Assembly: GCA_963668695.2 (NCBI GenBank)
Contig: CAXXLQ010000004.1
Location: 3,712,001 to 3,776,000 of the forward strand
DNA from: Vicinamibacteria bacterium
GTDB lineage: Bacteria; Acidobacteriota; Vicinamibacteria; Marinacidobacterales; Marinacidobacteraceae
Direction of reading: 5' to 3'
Length of the DNA: 64,000 bases
Below are positions 17,650 through 23,530 of this stretch, in pieces. A model generated the notes under the pieces. It did no database searches. It was not told the origin of the DNA and saw only the letters and a list, made by a program, of their open reading frames with translations. The translations under genes were made by a program, and so were the position numbers. Within the stretch, counting starts at the first letter, position 1. Each line of letters opens with the position of its first letter.

Positions 17650-17919
17650 CAGCCTGTGGACAAAGTCAGACGGCCCAGTTCTCCCGGTGGGGGCTCGAGC
17701 GGCGATGCATCCCGGCTGAACCGCCCCCCCACCGGGAGAACTGGCGCTTCGCGTCGCTCATCGTTGCGCTTCGGGCGCTTCGGGCGCTTCGGGCGCTTCG
17801 GGCGCTTCGGTAGAAATACACCCGGTATTCCTCCCTCGCGCGCCTTGTCAGCCGGGCGCCTCACCGGCCAGTTCTCCCGGTGGGGGCCTCGGCGCTCCCG
17901 TCACTTTATCCACAGGTTG
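17650..17919. mobile_element. MITE copy 2 (divergent), with 3 micro-inserts and a 5x9-bp microsatellite
   Basis: IR CAGCCTGTGGACAAAGT / ACTTTATCCACAGGTTG; shared core AAATACACCCGGTATTCCTCCCTC..CCTTGTCAGCCGGGCGCCTC; (GCGCTTCGG)5 at 17766-17810. Confidence 0.8.
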
Positions 17920-18024
17920 TTCAGTGTGGTACAAGCGGTAGCCGTCCCTTCCGCCGGCCAAGAGCAGCTATCCGATCGTATCCTGCGGAGGGCGCAGCAC
18001 CTCACGCCGCACGGAGACCCGACC

Positions 18025-19965
18025 ATGACCCCGCCCCAGAAGACGTACCGCCCCTTTGGAGACGGCGTCAGCCGCCGCGATTTCCTTTCCGGGATTCCCG
18101 TGGCCCTGACCGGGACCGCCCTCGCCTGCCAAGAGGTTCCGGCGTTCCAGTCCGAAATCGAGCGCGAGGGCGCGGCGGCCTATCCGCCGCTTCGCACCGG
18201 GATGCGTGGATCCCACGCGGGCTCCTTCGAAGTCGGGCACCAGATGGCCCACGAGGGCCGGAGTTGGGAAGCCCCGGACACCGGCGAGGCGTACGACCTC
18301 GTGGTGGTGGGCGCCGGGATTTCAGGACTTTCCGCCGCCCATTACTTCTCGAAGGAGGCCGGCCCGGACGCCCGCATCCTGCTTCTCGACAACCACGACG
18401 ATTTCGGCGGGCATGCCAAACGCAACGAGTTCCACCTCGACGGGCGGACCTACCTGATGAACGGCGGAACCCTCAACGTGGAAGCGCCCTCGCAGTACGG
18501 GGATATCGCCGGCGGGCTGCTCAAGGAGATCGGGATCGACCGGAAGCGTTATTACGAGAGCATCAGCGCCGTCTCGGACACCTACGGGAATCTGGGTCTC
18601 CAGCGGGCCATGTTCTTCGACCGCGAGACTTTCGGGACGGACCAGTTGGTCGCGGGCATCGGGAGGCGTCCGCTCTCCGAGTTCCTCGCCGACTCGCCGA
18701 TGCCGGAGGCCGTCCGGAACGACCTGATCCGGCTTCACGCCGACGGGCAACCGGACTACCTGCCGGACCTCTCGCCCGCCGAGAAGAAGGCGTTCCTGGC
18801 CACCATCAGCTACAAGGACTTCCTGCTCGAATACGCGAAGTGCGACCCCGGAGTGGTCTGGTTCTTCGACCACCGGCCCAAGGGCCTCTTCTGCACCGGC
18901 ATCGATGCCTACCCGGCGCGCTACGCCTGGGAGGAGGGTTTGCCGGGGTTCTCGGGAATGGAAATTCCCGAGACGCCACCGGATGCTCTCGCCGACGAGC
19001 CGGGCGGCCAGCACGGACGCGAAAACCAGGCACGGGCCGATTCGGGCGATCCCGACCTCTACTTCCCGGACGGGAACGCGACGATCACCCGGCTCCTCGT
19101 GCGGGGGCTCATTCCGAACGCCGTCCCGGGGTCGACCATGGAAGACGTGGTGATGGCGCCACTGGACTACGGGATGCTGGACCAACCGGGTAACCGCGCC
19201 CGGATCCGGCTCTCCTCGACGGTCATTCGCGTCGAACCCGGCGAAGCCGGCCCGGCCCGGATCACCTACGTGCACGGCGACCAGGGGCACACGGTGACCG
19301 CCGGGCGGGTGATCCTCGCCTGCTGGCACAACATCATTCCCTACCTCGTTCCCGAGATGCCGAAGGCCCAGCGGGATGCGCTCTCCTGGCCGGTCAAGTC
19401 GCCGCTTCAGTACACGAGCGTGCTGCTCCACAACTGGCGGGCGTTCACCGAGGCGGGCGTCTCCTCGATTTCCGCGCCCGGGGGGTACCACACCTCGGTC
19501 GGACTCGCCCCCCAACTCGCGCTGGGCGACTACCGCACCTCGACCTCACCCGACGAGCCGCTGGTGGTGCGGATGAACCGCTACCCCTGCGAGCCCGGGC
19601 TCTCCCGCCGGGAGCAGCACCAGATCGGCAGGATGGAGCTGCTCCACACCACTTTCGAGACGGTGGAGGCGAACATCCGCGACCAGCTCAACCGGATGCT
19701 TGGCCGGAGCGGCTTCGACGATCAACGCGACGTCGCGGCGATCACCGTCAATCGCTGGCCGCACGGGTACACCTACTCCTACAACCCGCTCTTCGATCCC
19801 CCGGAGTGGGCGTTCGAGAACGGCGACGGCCGCCCCAACGTTTCCGCCCGGCAACCCTTCGGACGGATCGCAATCGCGGGCACCGACTCCGCCGCCAGCC
19901 CGCACACCGACGCCGCGATTCGCGAAGCCCATCGCGCGGTGGCGGAGATCCTCGCCGCGGACTGA
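18025..19965 (+). CDS. Tat-exported FAD-dependent oxidoreductase, spermidine dehydrogenase (SpdH)-like
   Basis: SRRDFL Tat motif; YPPLRTGMRGSH, VVGAGISGL, DNHDDFGGHAKRNEF, FPDGNA, ITVNRWPHGY. Confidence 0.85.
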   Translation: MTPPQKTYRPFGDGVSRRDFLSGIPVALTGTALACQEVPAFQSEIEREGAAAYPPLRTGMRGSHAGSFEVGHQMAHEGRSWEAPDTGEAYDLVVVGAGISGLSAAHYFSKEAGPDARILLLDNHDDFGGHAKRNEFHLDGRTYLMNGGTLNVEAPSQYGDIAGGLLKEIGIDRKRYYESISAVSDTYGNLGLQRAMFFDRETFGTDQLVAGIGRRPLSEFLADSPMPEAVRNDLIRLHADGQPDYLPDLSPAEKKAFLATISYKDFLLEYAKCDPGVVWFFDHRPKGLFCTGIDAYPARYAWEEGLPGFSGMEIPETPPDALADEPGGQHGRENQARADSGDPDLYFPDGNATITRLLVRGLIPNAVPGSTMEDVVMAPLDYGMLDQPGNRARIRLSSTVIRVEPGEAGPARITYVHGDQGHTVTAGRVILACWHNIIPYLVPEMPKAQRDALSWPVKSPLQYTSVLLHNWRAFTEAGVSSISAPGGYHTSVGLAPQLALGDYRTSTSPDEPLVVRMNRYPCEPGLSRREQHQIGRMELLHTTFETVEANIRDQLNRMLGRSGFDDQRDVAAITVNRWPHGYTYSYNPLFDPPEWAFENGDGRPNVSARQPFGRIAIAGTDSAASPHTDAAIREAHRAVAEILAAD

Positions 19966-20123: not shown

Positions 20124-20498
20124 ATGACCCGAAGGAGCAGAGTGTCTCTAGATTTCTATGATCGGTCTGGCGCGGCAGTGGCCTATACGAATGATGGAGA
20201 GAACATCTACCTGTATTCAGGTGAACCCGTCGCCTATCTCTCGGATGGTTCCGTCTATTCCTTCGCGGGCCAACATCTCGGATGGTTTGAGGGCGGCTGG
20301 CTAAGGGATGCGGCTGGACACTGCGTTCTCTTCACAGCGGACGCTCGCGGTGGCCCTCTGAAACCCCTCCGTCAGTTGCGTCCACTAAAGGGATTGAGAC
20401 AACTCCGACCCACGAAGGGCGTACGGCAGATTAAACCTCTCAAGCCTTTGAAATCCCTGTCCTGGTCAGACTTGTCGGCTGAGGAGTTCTTTCGGTGA
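20124..20498 (+). CDS. Small '4-fold beta flower'-like protein with basic KPL repeats
   Basis: FYDRSGAAVAY, IYLYSGEPVAYL, VYSFAGQHLGWF repeats followed by (L)KPL(R/K)Q repeats; lower GC. Confidence 0.65.
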   Translation: MTRRSRVSLDFYDRSGAAVAYTNDGENIYLYSGEPVAYLSDGSVYSFAGQHLGWFEGGWLRDAAGHCVLFTADARGGPLKPLRQLRPLKGLRQLRPTKGVRQIKPLKPLKSLSWSDLSAEEFFR

Positions 20499-20510
20499 CG
20501 GCCGGTTGAC

Positions 20511-21200
20511 TTGGACTTGATTCCGCTCGCTCGGGTCCGCTTCGCGATTCTCGACGTCCTAGTCGAAACTGGCGTCGCCCCCTCTCCTAGCGAGGTGGCC
20601 GAAAGACTGGGGACCGCATTGGAGACGGTTCACGACGCGTGGAGCCAGTTGCGGGAGTCGCGGGCGATCGTCACCGGTGAGGACGGGGTCTCCATCCTGA
20701 TGGCAAACCCGTTCTCGGGGATTCCCACGGAGCACACCTTCGAAGCGGCGGGAATCCGCTACTACGCGAACTGCGCCTGGGACGCCCTCGGGATCCCCGC
20801 CGCGCTCGGGCGAGGCGGGACCGTCCGGTCGCGCTGTGCGAACTCCGGGGAACCCCTGCGGCTCGAACTCACCGGCGCCGGGCCGGAACCCTGCGACTGG
20901 CTCTTCCATTCGCTGGTGCCGGCGGCCCGCTGGTGGGACGACATCGTCTTCACCTGAGCGAACATGCTGTTCTTCCGGTCGGAAGACGACCTTCGCGCCT
21001 GGTGCGGCGAGCGCGGGCGCGAACCGGGGCCCGCGGTTCCGGTGTCCCGGCTCTGGAACCTCTCACGGATCTGGTACGGAAGCCGGCTTGATCCGAACGC
21101 CCCCCGGCCCACGCCCGAGGAGGCTCGCGCTATCTTCGCCCGAGTAGGCCTGACCGACCCTTTCTGGGATCCGGTTCCGCGCGAGGAGCAGACGCCATGA
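20511..21200 (+). CDS. MerB-like organomercurial/organometal lyase family protein with in-frame UGA (probable selenocysteine, codon 149)
   Basis: wHTH-like N-terminus, ANPFSG, YANCAWDAL, then WWDDIVFT-UGA-ANMLFFRSE continuing in frame to 21200. Confidence 0.8.
20969..20987 (+). promoter_or_regulatory. Candidate bacterial SECIS hairpin
   Basis: TCTTCC-GGTC-GGAAGA (20971-20986); G-initiated loop begins 19 nt after the UGA at 20955-20957. Confidence 0.6.
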
Positions 21201-22585
21201 TTGACGAGAAGTCCGATAGACAAAGCCAGGATTCACCCTCCGCACCCAAGATGCGCTTCGGACTGACCCGCCGACAGTTGCTGGCCGCCGGGGCCGGAGC
21301 GGCTGTCGTTCCGGCACTCGTCGCCGCCCAGGCCGCACCGGCCTCCCTGCTGGCGGCTCCCAAGATCCCGAACGTCCGTATCGGGTTCGTGGGAGTGGGC
21401 GGGATGGGAACCGTGCACGTCCAGAATCTGCTCGCGGTGGGCAAGGCGTCACCCGGAGTGGAGATCCGGGCGATCTGCGACATCCGTGCGGAACACGCCG
21501 AGCGGGCGCGCGACTTCATCCGCGAGGCGGGAGGGCCGGAACCCACTCTCTACACCCGGGGGGAACGGGACTTCGAACGGATGTGCGCCGAAGAGGACCT
21601 CGACCTCGTCTTCACCGCGACGCCCTGGCGCTTCCACGTCCCGGTGTGCCTCGCCGCCATGGAGAACGGCAAGCACGCCGCCACCGAGGTGCCGGCCGCG
21701 ACCACCATCGAGGAGTGCTGGGCGCTCGTTGAGGCCGCGGAACGCACCGGCCGGCACTGCGTGATGATGGAGAACTGCAACTACGGCCGCTGGGAAATGA
21801 TGGTCTTCCACATGGTCCGACTGGGGATCTTGGGCGAGATCCTCCATGCCGAAGGCGGCTACCTCCACGACCTCCGCGAGGTGAAGTTCGCGGACCGGGG
21901 GGAGGGGCTGTGGCGGCGCGCCCATTCGAGCACCCGGGACGCGAACCTCTACCCGACCCACGGCCTGGGTCCGGTGGCGAACTGCCTGGACATCGGCCGC
22001 GGCGACCGCTTCGACTACCTGGTCTCGATGAGCGGGCCGTCGCGGGGACTTCAGGACTACGCGCGGGAGCACTTCCCCGAGGGGGCGCCGCCGCGGGCGG
22101 AAGAGTTCGTGCTCGGGGACGTGAATCTGAGCCTGATCAAGACCGCCCGCGGCCGCACCATCACCGTGGTCCACGACACGAACCTGCCGCGCCCGTACAG
22201 CCGGATCAACCTGGTCCAGGGCACCCGGGGCATCTTCGCGGGCTACCCGAACCGGGTCTACGTCGAGGGAAGGAGCGAGTCGCACCGCTGGGACGACGCC
22301 GAGAAATGGCGCGAGGAGTACGAGCATCCGCTCTGGCGGAACGTCGCGGGCCCCGGTGAGGAGCTGGGGCACGGCCAGATGGACTACCTTGAGGACTACC
22401 GCCTCGTGCGATGCCTGCAGGAAGGGTTGCCGACCGAAATGAACGTCTACGACGCCGCCGCGCTCTCCGCCGTCATAGACCTCAGCGAACGCTCGGTGGC
22501 CGACCGCAGCCGGCCGATGGACTTCCCGGACTTCACACGGGGCGGCTGGAAAACGTTCCCGAAGCTGCCGGTCGTCACCGACTGA
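21197..22585 (+). CDS. Tat-exported Gfo/Idh/MocA oxidoreductase, GH109 (alpha-N-acetylgalactosaminidase-like)
   Basis: TRRQLL Tat motif; GVGGMG, ATPW, EVPAA, MMENCNY, YPTHGLGP, HDTNLPRPYSR, HGQMD. Confidence 0.9.
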   Translation: MIDEKSDRQSQDSPSAPKMRFGLTRRQLLAAGAGAAVVPALVAAQAAPASLLAAPKIPNVRIGFVGVGGMGTVHVQNLLAVGKASPGVEIRAICDIRAEHAERARDFIREAGGPEPTLYTRGERDFERMCAEEDLDLVFTATPWRFHVPVCLAAMENGKHAATEVPAATTIEECWALVEAAERTGRHCVMMENCNYGRWEMMVFHMVRLGILGEILHAEGGYLHDLREVKFADRGEGLWRRAHSSTRDANLYPTHGLGPVANCLDIGRGDRFDYLVSMSGPSRGLQDYAREHFPEGAPPRAEEFVLGDVNLSLIKTARGRTITVVHDTNLPRPYSRINLVQGTRGIFAGYPNRVYVEGRSESHRWDDAEKWREEYEHPLWRNVAGPGEELGHGQMDYLEDYRLVRCLQEGLPTEMNVYDAAALSAVIDLSERSVADRSRPMDFPDFTRGGWKTFPKLPVVTD

Positions 22586-22606: not shown

Positions 22607-22720
22607 GGCCCCCTCGGGCGCGCCAGCCAAATCCCCATCGGCCCGGTCATTCAATGCCGGGAAGCAAACCAAACGCAGTTTCCACAATCACCGGCCTACA
22701 CACGGAATTTCTGACAGTCC
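22607..22720 (+). mobile_element. Orphan right end of the IS256-family element
   Basis: ~115 bp closely matching 61408-61522 and ending in the IR ACACGGAATTTCTGACAGTCC. Confidence 0.85.
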
Positions 22721-22721
22721 T

Positions 22722-23530
22722 GCAGATCCCGGAATTGACGCATGCCCGGCTCGGCAGACCCCGGAATTGACCCATGCTCAGCCCGGCAGATCCCGGAATT
22801 GACGCATGCCCGGCCCGGCAGATCCCGGAATTGACGCATGCCCGGCTCGGCAGATCCCGGAATTGACCCATGCTCGGCTCGGCAGATCCCGGAATTGACC
22901 CATGCCCAGCTCGGCAAATCCCGGAATTGACGCATGCTCGGCCCGGCAGACCCCGGAATTGACCCATGCTCGGCCCGGCAGACCCCGGAATTGACGCATG
23001 CTCGGCTCGGCAGACCCCGGATTTGACGCATGCCCGGCTCGGCAGACCCCGGAATTGACGCATGCCCGGCCCGGCAAATCCCGGAATTGACGCATGCCCG
23101 GCCCGGCACACCCCGGAATTGACGCATGCCCGGCCCGGCACACCCCGGAATTGACCCATGCCCGGCCCGGCACACCCCGGAATTGACCCATGCTTGGCCC
23201 GGCAGACCCCGGAATTGACCCATGCTCGGCCCGGCACACCCCGGAATTGACCCATGCTCCGGCCAGCCGGCCCCGGAATTGACCCATGCTCGGCCCGGCA
23301 GACCCCGGAATTGACCCATGCTCGGCCCGGCACACCCCGGAATTGACCCATGCTCGGCCCGGCAGACCCCGGAATTGACGCATGCCCGGCCCGGCACACC
23401 CCGGAATTGACGCATGCCCGGCTCGCAGATCCCGGAATTGACGCATGCCCAGCTCGACAAATCCCGGAATTGACGCATGCCCGGCCCGGCAGACCCCGGA
23501 ATTGACGCATGCTCCGGCCAGCCGGCCCCG
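22722..23530. repeat. Minisatellite, 25 copies of a 32-bp unit
   Basis: Consensus GCAGA(T/C)CCCGGAATTGAC(G/C)CATGC(C/T)CGGC(C/T)CG; GGAATTGA core (one GGATTTGA) counted 25 times at 32-bp spacing, with one 31-bp unit. Confidence 0.95.

Follow-up and report, generated by a model that had tools for sequence, protein, structure and literature searches.

Gene organization at the locus

The window, which is the whole 64,000-nucleotide stretch of DNA that was analysed (Vicinamibacteria bacterium assembly GCA_963668695.2, contig CAXXLQ010000004.1, positions 3,712,001 to 3,776,000), contains a forward-strand MerB-family gene that has an in-frame TGA. The gene (20511..21200, + strand) comprises 229 codons: a TTG start, an internal UGA at codon 149 (20955–20957), predicted to be read as selenocysteine (Sec149), and a true stop TGA at 21198–21200. 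An earlier note on this DNA, made from the letters alone, had described two same-frame open reading frames (ORFs), 20511..20957 and 20964..21200, with TGA, GCG, and AAC between them, and a read-through product of 229 residues; both descriptions are borne out, and 20511–21200 is one intact gene rather than two ORFs. The read-through product contains the segments ..YYANCAWDALG.. and ..WWDDIVFT-U-ANMLFFRSEDD... The TTG start is also used by one database gene call (P0003).

The N-terminal part of the read-through product (about residues 6–50) is HTH-like, and residues 68–190 form the MerB catalytic domain. In an alignment of 32 homologues, the segment that follows the TGA is conserved (residues W164, W188, Y189, R192, G213, L214, F218, and W219), and protein-level conservation of the post-UGA frame extends down to 30–40% identity. 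This copy of the gene is an ordinary member of a widespread MerB-like family.

Upstream of the MerB-like gene lie two genes on the + strand. The more distant encodes an FAD/NAD-binding oxidoreductase (17656..19965; Pfam NAD_binding_8, DAO, and others at residues 213–274), the N-terminal motif of which is PigB-like or protoporphyrinogen-oxidase-like, with weak NCBIfam matches that fall below cut-off. The nearer encodes a 4-fold beta-flower protein (20124..20498; PF21784, 1.1e-40) and ends in TGA, 12 nt ahead of the MerB-like TTG start. In tblastn comparisons of 34 loci (L025–L058), the beta-flower gene is present at the locus in this genome (L025) alone, as an insertion. Downstream is the gene for a GH109-type/Gfo-Idh-MocA NAD-dependent enzyme (21197..22585, + strand; PF21252, 6e-60; PF01408, 6.6e-17), the product of which combines Glyco_hydro_109_C and GFO_IDH_MocA domains and has a twin-arginine-like N-terminus (..GLTRRQLLAAGAG..).

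The gene order in the genus is FAD oxidoreductase, MerB-like gene, GH109-type gene, and the FAD oxidoreductase gene is found in 11 other genus loci. It had been proposed that the MerB-like gene is translationally coupled to the GH109-type gene through an ATGA overlap. The overlap itself stands, at 21197–21200 and in 9 of 15 genus loci, and in 5 of the other 6 genus loci the ATG of the GH109-type gene is located 3–6 nt past the MerB-like stop; no GH109-type gene was seen beside the distant homologues. Within the genus the two genes probably share a transcript and may be translationally coupled, and the GH109 linkage is genus-level synteny only. A start of the GH109-type gene at Met19, which would leave no ATGA overlap, was considered and rejected, since in congeners the gene begins at the ATG that overlaps or adjoins the MerB-like stop, so that the product reads MTEKRSGLTRRQ...

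Beyond the genus, the flanking genes differ from locus to locus, and include prolyl oligopeptidase, GGDEF/EAL, MacB, GcpE together with DoxX, and amidohydrolase genes. A Pfam scan of 147 flanking ORFs from 14 distant loci revealed no mer genes and no neighbour common to the single-Sec forms. An all-against-all clustering that took in 2256 ORFs, drawn from flanks of up to 3 kb at 73 cross-phylum loci, likewise revealed no recurrent neighbour: the clusters represented in more than 6 loci are alternative frames of the MerB-like gene, and the largest cluster of true neighbours comprises 4 loci. The genome itself (91.7% complete) has one PF03243 copy, no MerA above cut-off (best score 371.9 vs 454.45 bits), and no MerT, in line with the earlier placement of the gene outside any mer operon.

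Conservation of the in-frame UGA and presence of the Sec machinery

The genome from which the window derives (4.10 Mb in 4 contigs; 91.7% complete, 9.3% contamination) encodes tRNA-Sec (69.7 bits vs a cut-off of 47; anticodon TCA, identified with ARAGORN), selA (499 bits), selB (306 bits), and selD (253 bits), with all three sel genes above their curated cut-offs. The check for Sec machinery that had been suggested thus finds every component sought, and the Sec reading is not refuted.

The TGA is widely conserved. Among 61 genomes (60 relatives and the own genome), 30 contain a match. Within the genus, 14 of 15 other genomes contain an orthologue (71–84% identity), with the in-frame TGA in 14 of 14; the sole congener without a match is 91% complete. 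All 31 loci extracted from relatives have TGA at the column corresponding to MerB Cys159, including loci of homologues at 37–42% and 24–31% identity from other families of the order. For the phylum, we searched an evenly drawn sample of 401 genomes with a match threshold of E <= 1e-8: 33 genomes matched, and the 29 loci extracted have TGA at the column in 27 cases and TGC in 2 (two of the 27 TGA loci come from unpublished genomes, G209 and G083, without which the count is 25 of 27).

To this we add a pattern scan of 185,579 species genomes, which returned at least 582 relatives among at least 594 pattern matches. In the best 80 loci of these relatives, which come from more than ten phyla, TGA is present at the column in 80 of 80. 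The taxa among the matches listed are Candidatus Marinacidobacterium, Vicinamibacteria, Terriglobia, Thermoanaerobaculia, Chloroflexota, Gemmatimonadales, Verrucomicrobiota, Planctomycetota, Ca. Eisenbacteria, Calditrichaeota, Omnitrophota, Bacteroidota, Ignavibacteria, Alphaproteobacteria, Gaiellales, and Ilumatobacteraceae, and the family occurs also in Acidobacteriota; the closest of the matches listed are from Ca. Marinacidobacterium (84–85%), and one of these shares its coordinates with the same-genus genome G001. The TGA is therefore not a peculiarity of one strain, a concern that the earlier note had raised: 14 of the 15 congeners keep it, as do 27 of the 29 phylum-sample loci and all 80 of the best cross-phylum loci.

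Contigs from public sequencing runs contain the same TGA. One, from another study (X3 record 6), spans 20661–21472 with 2 differences, neither of which is at the TGA or the hairpin described below; a second, from a divergent strain (X8 record 16), spans 20748–21537 and has 35 differences over 760 nt, none of them at 20955–20957 or within 20971–20986. Contigs from RNA libraries (X19, X20) cover 20200–20787 at a depth of 2.5–3.4 and may be DNA carry-over; they end short of the TGA and are therefore silent on read-through.

A selA gene (E <= 1e-60) is present in 33 of 33 phylum-sample genomes that have a match, vs 300 of 401 overall; this co-occurrence lends weak support, because selA is present in 75% of the sample and genomes that share ancestry do not count as independent cases. 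In this organism TGA otherwise serves as an ordinary stop, terminating four neighbouring Pfam-supported genes, the MerB-like gene included. An alternative genetic code, in which TGA specifies Trp or Gly, was accordingly rejected: neighbouring genes stop at TGA, and homologues have Cys, not Trp.

A SECIS-like hairpin downstream of the UGA

The SECIS element of Escherichia coli fdhF is a hairpin located just 3′ of the UGA; its apical loop is GGUC, and its 5′ arm contains a bulged U. In the present gene, a bacterial SECIS-like hairpin is located inside the coding sequence (20969..20987, + strand), is identifiable by covariation and frozen codons, and is present in the MFE fold. Specifically, the hairpin TCTTCC-GGTC-GGAAGA (20971–20986) has a stem in which 20971–20976 pairs with 20981–20986 and an apical loop, GGUC, at 20977–20980; at its base, G20969 pairs with C20987 and U20970 is bulged. 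The G-led loop that had been noticed in the letters is confirmed, with loop G 20977 standing 19 nt past the A of the TGA. The hairpin resembles the fdhF element in its GGUC loop, its bulged U, and the position of the loop, which starts at nucleotide 23 here vs 22 in fdhF, and differs in having a shorter upper stem and a different sequence; SelB binding here is predicted.

The distance between the hairpin and the TGA is fixed across Sec forms, the loop comprising nucleotides 23–26 counted from the U of the UGA, and the columns of the TGA and of the hairpin are shared by all orthologues examined. In an alignment of 31 sites (A1; 30 distinct), 97.1% of cells are paired and 3 of 7 pairs have changes on both sides; neither the observed covariation score nor the observed pairing is reached by any of 500 shuffles. 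In a control in which the partner was slid by 1–3 columns, pairing falls to 46–64%. The pair that closes the loop changes from C-G to U-A in a compensating way in three loci (L054–56), whose peptide at this site is FFWSE and whose Ser codon has become TCA, and from C-G to A-U in four others (L082, L104, L156, L161). In the best 80 cross-phylum loci (65 distinct 36-mers), all 6 stem pairs are present in 79 and the loop is GGTC in 77, and synonymous codons are nearly frozen (Arg CGG in 76 of 80, Ser TCG in 76 of 80). DNA was available for three Cys forms, which have other codons and just 3–4 of the 6 pairs, and have no hairpin.

The case for a SECIS element is one of conservation and covariation. 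The hairpin does not fold with unusual stability (z = −0.85; 40 of 200 shuffles fold at least as well), and we do not count stability as evidence, because this z-score is not significant. A scan of 20900–21060 against Rfam at E <= 10 returned noise and no SECIS family. Nucleotide conservation at the hairpin partly overlaps the conserved FFRSE peptide.

Cys homologues and truncated database entries

An exhaustive phmmer search of 1.84 billion cluster representatives yielded 1819 matches at E <= 0.001, of which the best 150 (representatives of 50%-identity clusters) were examined. At the UGA column, 57 of the 150 have Cys. A further 73 end exactly at query residue 148 (..[IV]xFT), and are therefore gene calls stopped by TGA; 8 are fragments that lack the column, and the remainder have W (3), R, S, or H (2 each), or A, Y, or P (1 each). 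One representative (P0125) is the 78-residue piece that follows the TGA. Additional Cys forms are present in two loci of the phylum sample (L085 and L087, both with TGC) and in L173. In the comparison of homologues called for in the earlier note, full-length homologues without the TGA thus have Cys at that position. Of the 57 Cys representatives, 27 also have Cys where the triad Asp would be (CAWC), giving a CCC triad.

Database proteins matching at E <= 1e-5 number 3736. In a database clustered at 90% identity, 119 of the 120 best matches are 126–160 residues long and cover 49–64% of the query; the truncated entries are named, where they have any name, 'hypothetical protein' or 'alkylmercury lyase'. 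The sole full-length entry among these 120 (P0053) has W at the column. The W in this entry and in the 3 cluster representatives probably reflects a TGA translated under another code table. Databases systematically mis-annotate the family, cutting the gene at the Sec codon. The family is on record as fragments of 146–148 residues, and reading the UGA as Sec corrects these annotations and enlarges the prokaryotic selenoproteome.

MerB fold and predicted active site

The read-through product matches the Pfam MerB domain (PF03243) with an E-value of 8e-28 and a score of 97.4 bits vs a cut-off of 27. The match extends over residues 68–190, spans the TGA, and covers the whole profile (positions 1–126 of 126). 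No NCBIfam model claims the protein above its cut-off.

In phmmer alignments to PDB chains, the MerB catalytic columns are occupied as the earlier note had supposed: C88 aligns with Cys96, D91 with Asp99, and U149 with Cys159. The register of the alignment is fixed, because the 3F2G chain has Ser at the next position, matching its C160S title. The counterparts of MerB Cys96 and Asp99 are encoded at 20772..20783 (+ strand; Cys88-Ala-Trp-Asp91). An alignment of 32 sequences (A2) shows no variation at C88 or W90 and at least 90% conservation at D91. The three MerB triad columns, as judged from these alignments, are kept in the Sec clade as Cys/Asp/Sec, with Sec rather than Cys as the third ligand.

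An AlphaFold2 model prepared from a 32-sequence alignment has a mean pLDDT of 95.0 and a pTM of 0.91. A Foldseek search of the PDB with this model returned MerB or MerB2 as all of the top 11 matches (E 4.8e-11 to 5.2e-8; TM 0.49–0.70); the next matches have E > 0.1 and are winged-helix regulators that align with the N-terminal domain alone.

Relationship to canonical MerB and to SaoL

The present protein shares its fold (Foldseek E down to 4.8e-11, TM 0.57–0.70) and domain with canonical MerB (EC 4.99.1.2; plasmid R831b; PDB 3F0O, 3F0P, 3F2F, and 1S6L) and with MerB2 (5C17), and its Cys88, Asp91, and Sec149 align with the MerB triad columns. It differs in having Sec in place of Cys159, in its low identity to MerB and MerB2 (22–27%), in its scores below the curated MerB equivalog cut-offs (57.5 vs 193 bits for NF009710 and 52.6 vs 200 bits for NF033555), in having no mer genes nearby, and in having an extra conserved C-terminal segment of ~35 residues. 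The Cys-containing MerB-like proteins, exemplified by a 'hypothetical protein' of Ralstonia solanacearum megaplasmids (L173) and by the representatives with CDC or CCC triads, have the same length and architecture and are 27–41% identical; they differ in having Cys for Sec, in having no hairpin, and in often having Cys for the Asp (CAWC).

MerB-like selenoproteins were already known, as the earlier note had stated. SaoL is a MerB-like 'selenocysteine-assisted organometallic lyase' (NF040728), which, according to the report that describes it, marks the SAO locus, a set of nine genes present in about 50 species of strict anaerobes, and for which Haft and Gwadz caution that the substrate may not be mercury (bioRxiv 10.1101/2022.07.06.499078). 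The two proteins are alike in being PF03243 proteins that have Sec for the Cys159 equivalent and keep the Cys96 and Asp99 equivalents, and in having database entries truncated at the UGA. The differences are that SaoL has a C-U dipeptide, whereas the present protein has F-T-U-A-N with no adjacent Cys; that SaoL sits in its nine-gene locus, whereas the present gene stands alone and has other neighbours; and that SaoL occurs in about 50 species, whereas members of the present family were matched in at least 582 stretches of species genomes. The SaoL model matches the present protein at residues 8–120 alone, with a score of 41 bits vs a cut-off of 140, and the present protein belongs to a different subfamily.

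SaoL is the one described MerB-like selenoprotein that our literature search found, in a search whose coverage stopped short of supplements and subscription journals. Two reviews, from 2022 (PMC9312934) and 2026 (PMC13188914), tabulate selenoproteins, and in the matched passages of both tables MerB appears solely in one entry, that of SaoL or 'alkylmercury lyase MerB-like'. As far as the search reached, the present Sec-MerB family is uncatalogued.

We computed a quick maximum-likelihood tree of 114 rows, with SH-aLRT as the only support measure, that includes every third cross-phylum locus and leaves out the unpublished loci and two partial loci. A branch with 99% SH-aLRT sets the 2 canonical MerB proteins apart from all 112 MerB-like rows. 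The present protein is located in an all-Sec clade of 33 rows (100%). Elsewhere in the tree, Sec and Cys forms are interleaved; the minimum number of changes between them on this tree is 9, of which well-supported branches force just 1.

Proposed function and alternative readings

The reading that best explains the data as a whole, and that we consider likely from the comparisons above, is that of a recoded, stand-alone Sec-containing MerB-family protein with a MerB-like active site. In this model, the hairpin 11–33 nt downstream of the UGA (20955–20957) would recruit SelB carrying Sec-tRNA(Sec), and the UGA would be read as selenocysteine, yielding a 229-residue, presumably cytoplasmic, MerB-family protein. 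The predicted active site comprises Cys88, Asp91, and Sec149: by analogy with MerB, the metal(loid) would be coordinated by the thiolate of Cys88 and the selenolate of Sec149, and Asp91 would protonate the leaving carbon, resulting in cleavage of the carbon–metal bond. Sec would have a lower pKa and bind soft metals more tightly, which may help at trace levels of substrate. The gene stands apart from any merA or merT and has no conserved partner outside the genus; in the genus it is co-oriented with, and may be stop/start-coupled to, the gene for a GH109-type enzyme predicted to be secreted.

The in-frame UGA very probably encodes selenocysteine, and the gene is thus in all likelihood that of a selenoprotein, because four independent lines agree: the Sec machinery, the conservation of the TGA, the Cys in homologues, and the SECIS-like hairpin. 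If the TGA were instead a true stop, termination and reinitiation at the ATG at 20964 would give pieces of 148 and 78 residues that assemble as a split MerB-like protein. This reading can appeal to the ATG two codons past the TGA in the window, to the Met that is common at that position in the family (..U-x-x-M-L-F-F..), and to the gene callers that predict the 148-residue piece and the one representative (P0125) that corresponds to the 78-residue piece. The Met, however, is also present in uninterrupted Cys forms (CSTMLLF) and is therefore a structural residue, and many Sec forms (L040–47, L076, L081, L084, L086, L088, L148) have in its place Ile (ATC), which is no start codon. A split protein would also lose the residue that is an invariant Cys in full-length homologues, and would leave unexplained both the conserved hairpin with its compensatory changes and the existence of relatives with two TGAs; we judge it highly improbable. 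That the gene is a pseudogene, or that the TGA arose by nonsense mutation or by an error in this assembly's sequence, has negligible probability: nothing more than the bare in-frame stop speaks for it, and against it stand the same TGA in all orthologues examined, the TGA in contigs from other studies, including the strain with 35 differences over 760 nt, and the conservation of the downstream frame as protein down to 30–40% identity.

With the selenoprotein reading preferred, the question turns to what the protein does. By analogy with MerB, lyase chemistry of the MerB type on some organometal(loid) is plausible, and we lean toward it with restrained confidence. The substrate may not be mercury, and organomercurials as the natural substrate are a somewhat doubtful proposition. 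The main functional rival is a non-catalytic binding role, in which a real selenoprotein is not a lyase but handles soft metals or selenium in the manner of a chaperone, a sink, or a sensor, or, by a further variant, acts in thiol-selenol redox chemistry; its HTH-like domain might then be regulatory. Such a role would fit a protein that has no mer operon partner and no conserved neighbour, that misses the MerB equivalog cut-offs (57.5 vs 193 and 52.6 vs 200 bits), and that has weak HTH Pfam matches at residues 8–63, and it would fit the CCC triad of 27 among the 57 Cys representatives, where Cys stands in place of the Asp that donates the proton, a replacement that suggests metal binding instead of protonolysis in part of the wider family. 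In the Sec clade, however, the Asp column is at least 90% conserved beside Cys88 and Sec149, and the protein matches the entire MerB catalytic domain (1–126 of 126) as well as the fold; canonical MerB, moreover, has the same N-terminal domain and yet is not known to be a regulator. On this evidence we regard a non-lyase role as unlikely.

The family offers a naturally occurring exchange of Cys for Sec at one metal ligand of an enzyme scaffold that is well studied, together with natural Cys forms for comparison, and the pair of Sec and Cys MerB-like proteins is a clean system for defining the contribution of Sec to metal–carbon chemistry. Should methylmercury or another organometal prove to be the substrate, the family would become a candidate for organometal turnover outside mer operons. 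A bolder proposal, which we offer as speculation with the chances against it, is that the Sec-MerB family, which occurs in hundreds of soil, sediment, marine, and sponge-associated species, might demethylate or dealkylate trace methylmercury or other environmental organometal(loid)s independently of mer operons, with Sec supplying the affinity needed at natural concentrations. Were this so, the two-Sec sister clades would represent a more extreme version of the same enzyme.

MerB-like relatives with TGA at both metal-ligand columns

Genomes of the same order contain two further MerB-like subfamilies that have TGA at both metal-ligand columns, the equivalents of MerB Cys96 and Cys159. The first subfamily (loci L049–L053) has the motifs WYGQ-U-GIE and AFT-U-ARM, and the second (loci L054–L056) has the motifs YAA-U-AED and DDF-U-RNS. 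In each of the two subfamilies, the first TGA is likewise followed by a hairpin whose loop contains GU. The first column of L053 is occupied by TAA, not TGA, and this locus may be a pseudogene. Each of the three loci of the second subfamily has, as a neighbor, a gene of the sulfite-oxidase type of molybdopterin oxidoreductase (PF00174).

Cysteine-form relatives and phylogenetic position

Many relatives with Cys at the UGA column carry a CAWC motif, in which Cys replaces the proton-donor Asp (among them cluster representatives P0133, P0139, and P0143, and genomic loci L085, L087, and L173). The resulting CCC triad is present in 27 of the 57 Cys-form proteins among the best 150 cluster representatives. 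One CAWC example, encoded on megaplasmids of Ralstonia solanacearum, is annotated as a "hypothetical protein."

In the quick maximum-likelihood tree, the sister of the genus clade containing the window protein is a locus from a Planctomycetota metagenome-assembled genome (L158; 97% SH-aLRT support), and the two together are nested in a clade drawn from many phyla. This placement hints at horizontal transfer of the MerB-like gene.

Selenium machinery

A selA match over the cut-off is present in 296 of the 401 genomes of the phylum sample, so selenocysteine use appears to be the norm in this phylum. The selD match of the genome under study (C4:729848–731614) lies inside a 1359-residue open frame that also gives a weak pyridine-nucleotide-disulfide-oxidoreductase-like match; the frame may encode a SelD fusion protein or may be no more than an extended open frame in G+C-rich sequence.

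Neighboring genes

Downstream, on the minus strand, a 287-residue ORF (22647–23510) contains no Pfam family over the cut-off. It aligns with one congener locus (L034) at ten offsets that overlap one another, and is therefore internally repetitive. Upstream, between the FAD-oxidoreductase and MerB-like genes, lies a gene for a 4-fold beta-flower protein (20124–20498; PF21784), which was not detected at the 14 congener loci and occupies this place in this genome only. Its TGA stop is located 12 nt upstream of the TTG start of the MerB-like gene, and the two genes are in the same frame.
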